A stretch of 64,000 nucleotides of DNA, taken from the sequence record OP870146.1, one strand, 5' to 3'. Below, one piece after another: positions 16,203 through 34,615 of the stretch. The position numbers and the translations under genes were made by a program. Under the pieces are notes generated by a model that saw only the letters and a program-made list of their open reading frames with translations, did no database searches and was not told the DNA's origin. This DNA comes from Escherichia phage vB_Eco_F27. Position 1 is the first letter of the stretch; every line of letters starts with the position of its first letter.

Positions 16203-16740
16203 ACTCATACGCCTGGAACGCGTCATAGACATCTTTTTCTGTTTTAGATTGAGCATAATTCAACGCATCAGCGATTTGCCATTTTTCTGCATCTTCAACA
16301 TGTTTAGCGTATGTGCGTTTAACATAAGGAGAAAGTACTTTATCGACATTCGCAAATGTAGTTCCGCCATACTGGTGTGAAGCAACTTGTGCAGTAATTT
16401 GTGCCATAATTGCAGTAGCAACGCCAATAGATTTAGGCGTTTCAATTTGAGCATTGCCTAATTTAAATCCATTCTCAAGCATCCCCTTTAAATCGACCAA
16501 ACAGCAATTAGTAAACGGAAGAGCAGGAGAATAATCAATATCATGCATGTGAATGATTCCGCTTTCATGCGCATTCATAATAAAAGACGGGACCATATTT
16601 TTGGCAATGTGCTTAGACACAATACCAGCCATAAGGTCCCGTTGAGTTGGAAAAACACGAGAATCTTTATTAGCATTCTCGTTCAAAAGATCTTTATTAG
16701 TTTTATGAATTAATCCTTCAATTTCTTTTTCAATTTTCAT
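16203..16740 (-). CDS. nrdD: NrdD exon 1
   Basis: MKIEKEIEGLIHKTNKDLLNENANKDSRVFPTQRDLMAGIVSKHIAKNMVPSFIM... is near-identical to the T4 NrdD N-terminus. The reading frame terminates at 16195 unless spliced. Confidence 0.85.
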
Positions 16741-17210
16741 TTTAAACTCTTTCTAAGCTGCTTTTTGAATGAAGCTATTAATTGTGTTTTAGTATCAGAT
16801 TCATTATATTCAAATCCTCTTTGAAGCATCTCGGCCATCATTTCCTCTTTACCTAGTCTTGAGAACTCTTTAGTTTTGTCTGGAACAAAATTAGGATGGA
16901 TATTATTAGCAGAATAATCTTGTTTCAAATAAGCAAGAAGAGCTTCAAGCCATTCGAGGTAGTCGACATCACGACCTTTAAGACCAGAACGGTTGAACTT
17001 ATGCTTCATTTGTCCTTCTGCTGCGTTGCACAGAGAACAGAGTAATCCACGAACTCTACCGGCTTTTGGCCCGTTTAATTCATGGTCGTGGTCAAGATGG
17101 TTACCTTGAACATCAGGGTCTAATTCACGGTGGCAAATAGGACACTTACCGTTCTGTGCATCATAAAATTTTTGTTTTTCTTCTTTATATTTTGCGCCTG
17201 ATAATAACAT
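16737..17210 (-). CDS. 49: endonuclease VII (Holliday junction resolvase) gp49
   Basis: 157 aa, CPIC...LCSLCN zinc site, C-terminus ...ESDTKTQLIASFKKQLRKSLK identical to the T4 EndoVII C-terminus. Confidence 0.9.
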   Translation of the reverse strand: MLLSGAKYKEEKQKFYDAQNGKCPICHRELDPDVQGNHLDHDHELNGPKAGRVRGLLCSLCNAAEGQMKHKFNRSGLKGRDVDYLEWLEALLAYLKQDYSANNIHPNFVPDKTKEFSRLGKEEMMAEMLQRGFEYNESDTKTQLIASFKKQLRKSLK

Positions 17211-17245
17211 GATAAACCCTTACCTTAAATAGATAAGGGTATTTA

Positions 17246-27393: not shown

Positions 27394-27975
27394 TTATAAC
27401 AACCCTGTCAAATCGTTCCAATGCTTCCGGCATAATGACACATATCTATCGGTATCACCAATTTCAATTTGACTGCCATCTGTAATTGGAAGTCCGTCTT
27501 CCGTGACTCTAGCTACCATTGTGGCCTTTTTACCGCAATGACAGACACCTTTAAGTTCAACAAGCTTATCGGCAATAGCCATTAATGCTTGAGAACCTTC
27601 AAATAGATTACCTTTAAAATCTGTTCGTAGTCCATATGCCATTACCGGCACATTGTATACGTCAACAATACGACTAAGTTGATACACCTTTTCAGTAGTT
27701 AAGAACTGAGCTTCGTCAACAAATACGCAGTGAATATCCTTTTGTGCTGCAGCCCATTTATAGAATTCAAAGATATCCATGTCTTTTGTAATTATATTGG
27801 CGTCCTGGCGAATACCAATACGAGAGACTATTTCACCTTTTGAATCGCGAGTATCAATAGCCGGTTTAAGAACTAATACACCCATGCCACGTTCTTTATA
27901 GTTATGTGCGGCAGTAAGTAATGAAGCAGACTTACCAGCGTTCATAGCGGCATAGGTAAAAATTAAACTAGCCAT
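27394..27975 (-). CDS. tk: thymidine kinase
   Basis: 193 aa, P-loop AAMNAGKSASLL. T4 Tk-like. Confidence 0.95.
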   Translation of the reverse strand: MASLIFTYAAMNAGKSASLLTAAHNYKERGMGVLVLKPAIDTRDSKGEIVSRIGIRQDANIITKDMDIFEFYKWAAAQKDIHCVFVDEAQFLTTEKVYQLSRIVDVYNVPVMAYGLRTDFKGNLFEGSQALMAIADKLVELKGVCHCGKKATMVARVTEDGLPITDGSQIEIGDTDRYVSLCRKHWNDLTGLL

Positions 27976-32462: not shown

Positions 32463-32861
32463 TTATTTGTAGGTTTTCATCCAATTCTTGAACAAAGCCG
32501 CGACGTCTTTCTCTTTAACGTTCAGTTTAATGTCCAACATTTTACCGCCCGCTGCTCTCGTTTGACGAATCTTAGCAGTACCGGTTTCACCATTCCACTC
32601 AACATAATATTGCCCAGTGTTCATAGCGATACCGTTGCCAAAGTCTTCGTTATTAGAAGTAGTGAATGCCAACTTCATGGTCTTAGAGACACGGGCCGGC
32701 ATGCCTGTCTGAAGGGCATTACGAACGCGAATAACCTGAGGAGTGGCCTGGGTCAGGTTCTCATTCAGTTCTTCGGTGAACTCTTCAGATTCAAACATCG
32801 CCAAAAGTTCTTTAGATGCAGGAATTACATTCTCTGCGATAAATTCTTTATATGTTTTCAT
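32463..32861 (-). CDS. capsid internal protein (CTS-bearing, IPIII/IPII-like)
   Basis: N-terminus MKTYKEFIAE, a T4 capsid-targeting sequence. 132 aa. Confidence 0.6.
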   Translation of the reverse strand: MKTYKEFIAENVIPASKELLAMFESEEFTEELNENLTQATPQVIRVRNALQTGMPARVSKTMKLAFTTSNNEDFGNGIAMNTGQYYVEWNGETGTAKIRQTRAAGGKMLDIKLNVKEKDVAALFKNWMKTYK

Positions 32862-32925
32862 TTTTTGTTTCCTTGTTTGTTTTGATAGAGTAATTATACC
32901 ATATTAATACTTAAGCGTAAACCGT

Positions 32926-33186
32926 TTAAGCTTTACCGCCAGAAATAATTCCGAAGTTGTTAAAATCGTATCCAATATCGTCAACATCTACTTTAGGACT
33001 TACTACAACATAAGCAATTTCACTACGTTTTGCATAGGTGTTTATTTCTTTACCATCACCACCTAAGAAAGAATACCCATTACGTTTTAATGAGCCAAAG
33101 TCTTCCGCATCACCAATGAAAGCTTTAACTTTAAATTTAGGACCTTTGGCATCTGCTTCAACGATAAATTCTTGATACATTTTCAT
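32926..33186 (-). CDS. capsid internal protein (CTS-bearing)
   Basis: N-terminus MKMYQEFIVEA. 86 aa. Confidence 0.55.
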   Translation of the reverse strand: MKMYQEFIVEADAKGPKFKVKAFIGDAEDFGSLKRNGYSFLGGDGKEINTYAKRSEIAYVVVSPKVDVDDIGYDFNNFGIISGGKA

Positions 33187-33192
33187 TTTTCC

Positions 33193-33296
33193 TTAGTAAA
33201 TTGATTTACCATAGTATTTGTACCAAGTCGGACGTTGAGCAATTTTTTCATCTAAGCGTGCTTGATTTATCGCAATGGACGCTTCGGACGGGTCAT
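33193..33296 (-). pseudogene. denV: denV (endonuclease V, pyrimidine-dimer glycosylase) remnant
   Basis: An intact promoter element, GGAGG SD and ATG ACC CGT (MTR, the T4 DenV start) are followed by a stop after 9 codons. A different frame encodes ..[34 protein letters not shown], matching the T4 DenV C-terminus. The track's 65-aa ORF 33193..33390 is an artifact that runs through the promoter. Confidence 0.55.
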
Positions 33297-33355
33297 AATT
33301 TCCTCCAAGTAGTTGATGAATGTATAGTATCAAAACCCTTGGAGGAAGTAAACAA

Positions 33356-33637
33356 CTATTTTTCTGAAGCGCCTGAAATATATTTTTCAAGACGTTGTTT
33401 CATTAAAGAGCCGTTCTTAGCGATTTCTTCCGGTTTATCGCACATACGCAACAAGGCTTCGAGCTTAACGATATCGCTGGTACGTTCAAATTTGCGAGTA
33501 TCTATCTTACTAGCAAGTTCAGAAATACGTGCTAATAGACTTTCGGCTTCAACCAAAGCTGCACCTAGCTTAGTTGCAAATGTGTCAGTAGCTTCGTTAA
33601 GAATAGATTCTGATAAAAATTCACTATATGTTTTCAT
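33356..33637 (-). CDS. capsid internal protein (CTS-bearing)
   Basis: Trimmed to [15 protein letters not shown]... (ATG ~33637). Confidence 0.5.
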
Positions 33638-34122
33638 ATATACGCTTTCCAAGTTCCTGTTTTAAATGTTGAGATTACGCGTTTCGCGCGATTAGGTGTC
33701 TGACGATACCATTTAGATTGGGCTAGATTTACTGCCGCTTCGTCCCAACGTTTCTGTTGAAGCATACGAAGAGAATTAGTAAAACCGGCAACGCCTGCTA
33801 CGCCCATTTGGAAGACCATATTGACCAATGCACATCGACGAACAGCATCTAAAGAATCATATACCGGTTTAAGTTTAGCATTACCCAAGATTCCGCGAAC
33901 GGCTTTATCAACGTCTTCATTAAATAGCTTTTCAGCCTCATCAAGGGTAATTGTACCGTTGCATTTACGACCGATCATTCTGTCAAGTTCAGCTTTAGCT
34001 ACGGCTAAAGAAGGGTTCTTTGTTACTAAATGGCCTATGCCAATCGTCCAAAAGCCTTCAGTGTCTTTGTATAAAGTCAGTCTAAGACCTTCGTCATTAC
34101 GAAGCATTTCAAATATATTCAT
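33634..34122 (-). CDS. e: endolysin (T4 lysozyme, gene e)
   Basis: Trimmed to [32 protein letters not shown]... (ATG 34122, GGAGG SD), 162 aa. Near-identical to T4 lysozyme. Confidence 0.95.
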
Positions 34123-34156: not shown

Positions 34157-34615
34157 TTATAGGAGGGTAGTGAGCACCTTATATAATGATTTGCCCATTA
34201 CATATTCCCATTGAGAAGGTTTAATTAAAGCGAATGCATCAAATTCAGGAATCTGACGTCCGTCTGGGAATGTATGATAGGAATTACAAACACTGTTTCT
34301 GAATTGCTCGTGCTCTACAGGGATGGTATATAGGAACAGATGAATATTCTTATTGTCTGAGTAATGATGTTCACCTAGGTCTTTCAGGAAGGCAGGGTCA
34401 TATTGTGTAAACCCAGTTTCTTCTTCGCATTCACGAATAGCGGCTTCAATAGGAGATTCGCCAGGTTCGACACGGCCTTTAGGAATATCCCACCGATGAG
34501 CTAATGCACCTTTAGGACGAGAACCAGTTACACGGCCCATGAATAATTCTTTATCTTTTGTCATGAAGATAATACCAGCGGACAACTCTTTCACTTTATT
34601 TTTCTTACTCATCAT
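34157..34615 (-). CDS. nudE: Nudix hydrolase NudE
   Basis: 152 aa, Nudix box GRVEPGESPIEAAIRECEEETG. Confidence 0.8.
   Translation of the reverse strand: MMSKKNKVKELSAGIIFMTKDKELFMGRVTGSRPKGALAHRWDIPKGRVEPGESPIEAAIRECEEETGFTQYDPAFLKDLGEHHYSDNKNIHLFLYTIPVEHEQFRNSVCNSYHTFPDGRQIPEFDAFALIKPSQWEYVMGKSLYKVLTTLL

Follow-up and report, generated by a model that had tools for sequence, protein, structure and literature searches.

In Escherichia phage vB_Eco_F27, the endonuclease V gene denV of T4-like phages (encoding a pyrimidine-dimer DNA glycosylase/AP lyase) survives only as a dead copy. Very probably, it became a pseudogene when the segment bounded by a 13-bp direct repeat was deleted, the dead allele then having been spread by recombination across two genera, Mosigvirus and Tequatrovirus. 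All positions given here refer to the 64,000-nucleotide stretch of this genome that was analysed (record OP870146.1), which we call the window.

The window belongs to a Mosigvirus (RB69-like) genome and shows approximately 96–97% identity to JS09, mar005P1 and JK42 over 24 kb. The genes that surround the locus are the following:

34157-34615, minus strand: nudE
33634-34122, minus strand: the lysozyme gene e
33356-33637, minus strand: internal-head-protein-like gene, homologue of RB69ORF127c and upstream neighbour of the denV remnant (annotation of relatives)
32926-33186, minus strand: 86-aa internal-head-protein-like gene, homologue of RB69ORF125c and downstream neighbour of the remnant (annotation of relatives)
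32463-32861, minus strand: 132-aa internal-head-protein-like gene

The order nudE, e, ORF127c-like gene, denV locus and ORF125c-like gene is the annotated order in RB69, Shf125875 and JK42, where denV occupies the position flanked by this pair of internal-protein genes. The flanks of the locus are 95–100% identical, and the 86-aa gene starts 6 nt past the denV stop. With neighbours, promoter motif and Shine-Dalgarno sequence all matching, the locus is orthologous by position to the denV gene of RB69-like phages. Within it, the following elements can be recognised:

33353-33324, minus strand: T4-type early-promoter motif GTTTAC-N18-TACTAT upstream of the denV start (pattern search)
33306-33302, minus strand: Shine-Dalgarno sequence GGAGG of denV, identical in 20 of 20 aligned alleles
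33300-33288, minus strand: deletion junction, the lone surviving copy of the 13-bp repeat AATTATGACCCGT (comparison with intact JK42)
33267-33296, minus strand: residual denV start, an ATG and eight further codons (MTRPKRPLR) followed by TAA (translation)
33193-33297, minus strand: C-terminal denV remnant of 34 codons and a stop, with no start codon of its own (residues 104-137 of T4 endonuclease V)
33193-33390, minus strand: 65-aa open reading frame with a TTG start, a mechanical reading and not a gene (open reading frame list; no Pfam family)

A preliminary description of this DNA had reported an early-promoter element, GGAGG and ATG ACC CGT, with a stop after nine codons, and all of these were found on the minus strand at the positions listed. 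The ATG (33296-33294) is separated from the TAA (33269-33267) by a reading of ATG ACC CGT CCG AAG CGT CCA TTG CGA TAA, that is, nine codons before the stop, and only the M-T-R of MTRPKRPLR comes from DenV, the remainder being C-terminal DNA read out of frame. The same description had recognised the last ~34 residues of DenV in another frame, and this similarity is not spurious: the 34-residue frame (33297-33196, with its TAA at 33195-33193), which differs from that of the ATG, encodes a peptide that aligns with residues 104-137 of T4 endonuclease V (PDB 2END/1VAS) with an E-value of 1.8e-15. Identity over these last 34 codons is ~88% to T4 and 97% to RB69. Intact DenV of JK42 (137 aa) aligns with T4 endonuclease V from end to end (E 1e-79), and when used as a tblastn query against the window it matched through residues 102-137 only, at 33303-33196 (E 6e-19). 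The Pfam domain Pyr_excise (PF03013) covers residues 1-87 of the intact JK42 protein, with 52.5 bits against a cut-off of 23, and a Pfam scan of the remnant open reading frame returned no family, Pyr_excise included. Instead of a continuous reading frame of ~137 aa, the locus thus retains only residues 1-3 and 104-137, in different frames. The catalytic roles in the T4 enzyme fall to the N-terminal amine of Thr2 and to Glu23; the Thr2 codon is kept, and codon 23 lies inside the deleted segment. Taken together, the locus reads as a pseudogene of denV.

The extent of the loss was delimited by pairwise alignment. Relative to RB69, JK42 and six more intact alleles, in an alignment that also included 11 other deleted alleles, the window differs by one clean 310-bp gap between copies of the 13-bp repeat and nothing else. 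The preliminary description had proposed a frame-breaking internal deletion with the middle ~100 codons gone, which agrees with the exactly 310 bp that are missing. Since 310 is not a multiple of three (3 x 103 + 1), the deletion breaks the denV frame, leaving the downstream codons out of frame with the start; it takes out 310 of 414 bp, including all of the Pyr_excise domain. In the intact alleles of JK42 and NicPhage, the perfect direct repeat AATTATGACCCGT occurs twice, 310 bp apart, the first copy running from the last bases of the Shine-Dalgarno spacer through codons 1-3 (aatt ATG ACC CGT) and the second spanning codons 102-106 (AAT TAT GAC CCG Tcc). The deletion therefore corresponds to one copy of the repeat plus the 297 bp between the copies, and the junction in the window combines the upstream context of the first copy with the downstream context of the second. 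One copy is retained in all carriers that were aligned, so that repeats are found at both parental ends and exactly one at the junction, as direct-repeat mediated deletion requires.

The repeat is not equally good in all intact alleles. Imperfect copies, AATTATGACTCGT and AATTATGTCCCGT, are present in RB69, Shf125875 and HMD-9; the two copies agree at 13 of 13 positions in JK42, 12 of 13 in SA79RD and 11 of 13 in RB69. The GAC-type downstream copy is needed for a perfect stretch of 9 bp or more, and also for a second seeded megablast piece in the search with the 65-nt junction. Of ~198 intact records, only eight gave such a two-piece match and thus have this type (JK42, NicPhage, KAW3E185, JK45 in two records, SA79RD, SA35RD and AV111). 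It is present in all deleted alleles but one, and the deletion therefore arose within the minority allele type possessing the longest and best repeat. In T4, deletions and amplifications readily form between microhomologies of 6-10 bp, as described for experimentally evolved T4 (PMC9391042).

The sequence of events can be reconstructed as follows. The parent would have been a JK42/NicPhage-like allele with AATTATGACCCGT at the start codon and again at codons 102-106, in which replication slippage or short-homology recombination between the copies would have removed one copy together with the intervening segment, that is, the whole catalytic domain. Of these two molecular routes either may have operated, the repeat junction being the signature of a short-repeat deletion. 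Ribosomes loading at the retained Shine-Dalgarno sequence and ATG would then produce only MTRPKRPLR, with the last 34 DenV codons out of frame. The dead allele has persisted, and homologous recombination has moved a block of approximately 0.9 kb containing it onto Mosigvirus and Tequatrovirus genomes. Of this account, the sequences show the homology, the boundaries of the deletion, the repeat in alleles of the parental type, the junction common to relatives, the mosaic backbones and the lack of a second denV; the molecular route, the UV-sensitive phenotype and the ongoing use of the promoter by the downstream gene are inferred.

Comparison with other RB69-like genomes at this locus revealed intact denV in the RB69 and JK42 types and the same deletion in 13 phages besides that of the window. 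Of 213 phage records, 15 matched the 65-mer spanning the junction over its full length as a single piece, and these represent G8, G4498, BF15, Phaginator, 235Ecol030PP, vB_Eco-B1.1, JM17, FL18, JM10, FL12, FL23, FL44 and Shinka. These phages were recovered in four countries (Germany, Poland, Denmark and the USA) from pig farms, pig faeces, manure or sewage, and the deletion allele is thereby found in ~7% of sequenced genomes with the denV locus. A 30-mer of the junction matched a single contig in IMG/VR, which is G8, and had no match among JGI metagenome contigs, including when the query was relaxed to admit the Shinka variant, so the prevalence figure applies to isolate genomes.

NCBI assigns the carriers to two genera, Mosigvirus and Tequatrovirus, and the split is borne out by their sequences. 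Across nudE and the greater part of e, a Mosigvirus haplotype is found in the window, JM17, FL18 and JM10, and a Tequatrovirus haplotype in G8, G4498, BF15, Phaginator, 235Ecol030PP, Shinka, FL23 and B1.1; in nudE/e the window is only 58-86% identical to G8. Next to these genes lies a block shared between the two backbones:

32838-33713, minus strand: ~0.9-kb block with the 3' end of e, an internal-protein gene, the deleted denV and an internal-protein gene (sliding identity, haplotype table)

This block is 93-100% identical between carriers with Mosigvirus and Tequatrovirus backbones. In JM10 (Mosigvirus) and FL23 (Tequatrovirus), the remnant has the same 1-bp deletion and the gene after it the same 2-bp insertion, and the sharing of these extra indels on different backbones shows that the allele has moved between backbones by recombination. 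The insertion (AA, equivalent to window ~33090) shortens the RB69ORF125c-like gene to 59 aa, so that in these two phages the recombining block carries a second pseudogene from one genus to the other. Intact alleles of the block also cross genera, as in HMD-9, and the ~0.9-kb block is therefore generally mobile and its exchange routine. The preliminary description had called the deletion a recent scar and not an ancestral absence. The second half of this statement stands, as a deletion is what is found; the first holds only in a relative sense, with the identical scar in 13 other phages. Being common to 13 phages on two genera, and having accumulated further substitutions and frameshifts, the scar is an established polymorphism, neither private nor especially recent.

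The control region of denV has been conserved along with the deletion. The early-promoter motif is kept in both the intact and the deleted alleles of the 20-allele alignment. The pattern GTTTAC-N18-TANNNT has ten matches in the window (between 11637 and 44734), all on the minus strand and the denV site among them, compared with 0.83 expected. A generic sigma-70 promoter scan did not report the denV promoter, in contrast to the T4-specific early motif search, which did report the site. Searching for the late-promoter motif TATAAATA gave none in the denV locus and none between 27398 and 42074, and neither a sigma-70-like site nor a late TATAAATA lies between the retained denV motif and the 86-aa gene. 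Apart from the retained early motif, no promoter motif can be recognised ahead of the 86-aa gene (32926-33186), which, judging from the spacing and from this lack of an alternative, is probably co-transcribed from the retained one. Because it is the only one, the early motif may be retained through selection for the 86-aa gene rather than through the youth of the deletion, and an intact promoter motif and Shine-Dalgarno sequence are not a clock for the age of the deletion. Another match to GTTTAC-N18-TANNNT is located at 32922-32893, just upstream of the 132-aa internal-protein-like gene. In addition, an extra T at window position 33348, within TAGTTGTTTAC and directly 5' of the -35 element GTTTAC, occurs in nine of the 12 carriers, whereas all eight aligned intact alleles lack it; it is linked to the denV deletion.

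Several other explanations of the short locus have to be weighed against this reading. A bare length difference, and nothing more, would equally be seen if the short form were ancestral and the full-length gene had arisen by insertion in relatives, or if the gap were an assembly or sequencing artefact. Both are almost certainly wrong: DenV of ~137 aa is conserved in T4 itself and, at 38-96% identity, in 80 or more contigs of T4-like and other viruses, the two halves of the remnant stand in different frames, and the 13 isolates with the same junction come from four countries and were sequenced independently. A different proposal is that the short open reading frame is a conserved independent small gene, kept because the C-terminal peptide of DenV has a function of its own; vB_Eco-B1.1, JM17 and FL18 have it as an annotated frame (some records call it a 46-aa 'endonuclease'), and conservation of the remnant among carriers is 96-99%. 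We consider this highly improbable. The remnant is no more conserved than the flanking DNA, it has no Pfam match, and the curated RefSeq records of G8 and G4498 give it no annotation. The C-terminal frame has no ATG, GTG or TTG past the junction, and the only possible starts, the TTG codons of the 46-aa and 65-aa open reading frames, lie in the promoter -10 region or inside the upstream gene and have no Shine-Dalgarno sequence. The preliminary description had dismissed the 65-aa open reading frame as an artefact that reads through the promoter, and rightly so, given that it begins at a TTG in the 3' end of the upstream gene, passes through the promoter motif and the Shine-Dalgarno sequence, and encodes no Pfam family. 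Neither a plausible start with a ribosome-binding site nor a frame conserved in all carriers is thus found. The alignment shows the frame broken by the 1-bp deletion of JM10 and FL23, and FL12 and FL44, whose junction match is the same 98.5% as that of JM10 and FL23, probably share this frameshift. Related phages do carry the remnant, a circumstance that the preliminary description had named as unfavourable to its own reading if the short frame were conserved as a gene, but in broken form in JM10 and FL23, and probably also in FL12 and FL44, and without RefSeq annotation. Such secondary disabling mutations in related copies are what a pseudogene is expected to show. The changes specific to carriers are S12N, A21D, Y30F, one frameshift and one synonymous substitution, so that three of four carrier-specific substitutions are non-synonymous; those specific to intact alleles are I9V, T25S and five synonymous ones. 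The resulting ratios of non-synonymous or frameshift to synonymous changes, 4:1 in carriers and 2:5 in intact alleles, come from few sites and do not differ significantly (one-sided Fisher p ~0.12), although their direction fits relaxed constraint.

Whether the deletion occurred once or several times is a separate question. The repeat could be a recurrent hotspot at which the deletion arose independently several times, as opposed to one allele spread by recombination. This is mechanistically plausible given the repeat (PMC9391042), and the carriers do occupy two genus backbones. In Shinka, moreover, the junction (equivalent to window 33293) reads ATGTCC and not ATGACC, a one-base difference, and the resulting AATTATGTCCCGT is the exact product of a deletion through the 7-bp core AATTATG of an RB69-type allele. 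We nevertheless regard recurrence as rather unlikely, in view of derived states common to carriers that none of the examined intact alleles of Mosigvirus type has: S12N (AGT>AAT) in nine of 12 carriers and Y30F (TAT>TTT) in 11 of 12, each absent from the ten such alleles, as well as the extra T upstream of the -35 element, in nine of 12. Of these states, S12N and the extra T are found in the window, which is the only carrier with the ancestral TAT at Y30; Y30F is also found in distant intact DenVs. Shinka itself has both Y30F and the extra T, and its junction could possibly represent either an independent RB69-type deletion or a later conversion or point change, the two being equally possible. 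The two further indels shared by JM10 and FL23 on different backbones fit only allele transfer, and intact block alleles cross genera too, as in HMD-9. Because the carriers share derived states not seen in the Mosigvirus-type intact alleles examined, the evidence favours one apparent origin followed by recombination.

With one origin and later exchange as the preferred reading, it could still be asked whether the allele has been favoured by selection. That the denV-null allele is advantageous in some niches, and is not merely drifting, seems very unlikely to us. If it were, the advantage might lie in dark habitats such as gut, manure and sewage, where UV repair would be useless, or alternatively DenV or its DNA-nicking activity might be a liability against some host defence; such an advantage would explain both the spread onto both genera and the ~7% frequency.

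The remnant locus is predicted to yield no DenV activity. To look for a second gene, a DenV profile built from 48 diverse homologues was compared with the six frames of the 64-kb window and of the complete JM17 genome (168,588 bp), and no second denV was found in either; the profile matched the remnant only, through profile positions 95-137, with E-values of 1.6e-13 in the window and 6.5e-13 in JM17. Related loci from IMG/VR, mostly distant DenVs with few Mosigvirus alleles among them, served for the profile and were unsuited to haplotype counts. From the window and this related carrier, we infer that this phage has no second copy elsewhere. With no further denV in the window or in JM17, there are good grounds to predict that the phage is without pyrimidine-dimer excision and more UV-sensitive than its denV+ relatives. 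Host UvrABC or photolyase could mask this UV phenotype. The next profile match, at a non-significant E-value of 0.013, falls in an open reading frame at 16740-17219 on the minus strand (profile positions 47-92), whose counterpart is labelled 'endonuclease' in JM17 (27401-27874) and endonuclease VII in G8. Intact DenV also has a weak match to the Pfam family Endonuc-dimeris, which is echoed by this open reading frame, and the likeness is probably a compositional or coiled-helix similarity.

When compared with denV of T4 and RB69 (RB69p126), the locus has the same position, between e with an internal-protein gene and a second internal-protein gene as in RB69, and the same promoter motif, Shine-Dalgarno sequence and first three codons; it differs in that the remnant is without the Pfam domain and the Glu23 region and is split into two pieces in different frames. 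Classic T4 rII deletions occurred between direct repeats. T2 and T4 differ naturally in their sensitivity to UV, a difference classically attributed to the v/u gene. Laboratory T4 v- (denV-) mutants likewise have lost denV function in a viable T-even phage, with increased UV sensitivity expected, but in the present case the phenotype is predicted and the lesion is a defined repeat deletion common to two genera. As in the microhomology deletions of T4 (PMC9391042), direct repeats in the parent bound the deletion and one copy remains at the junction. In contrast to those laboratory events, the denV deletion is a natural allele of field isolates, is small (310 bp) and confined to one gene, and involves a repeat of 13 bp compared with the typical 6-10 bp. 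A literature search for denV loss in Mosigvirus, Tequatrovirus or phage T2 found no paper describing such an allele. Both the gene and the mutational mechanism are very well known, and the locus is an ordinary natural loss-of-function variant and no new system. What is new beyond the preliminary description is the repeat mechanism, the distribution across the population and across genera, the secondary decay and the caveat on the word 'recent'.

These results have practical consequences for annotation and for the use of these phages. In GenBank records, the remnant is either mis-annotated as a small 'endonuclease' or left blank; it should be annotated as a denV pseudogene and not as a 46-65-aa 'endonuclease' or hypothetical protein. 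The carriers are predicted natural denV knock-outs, which bears on comparisons of UV stability among RB69-like phages intended for phage therapy or biocontrol, and JK42-type phages and carriers would offer ready isogenic-like pairs for the study of DenV. For T-even phages, the locus is also a clean example from the field of deletion between short repeats, with the deletion-prone parental allele still segregating, and it illustrates the exchange of a small block between phage genera.

The internal-protein cluster of T-even genomes is a region known for shuffling, and the cluster beside denV is a hypervariable cassette. Below ~32838, the identity of the window to G8, JM17, SA79RD and JK42 drops to 0-40%, and the 132-aa gene, which is common to the window and HMD-9, is replaced by unrelated DNA in these four phages. 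The three tandem genes of the cluster (33356-33637, 32926-33186 and 32463-32861, all on the minus strand) share the N-terminus MK(T/M)Y(S/Q/K)EF..E, which resembles the capsid-targeting sequence of T4 internal proteins.
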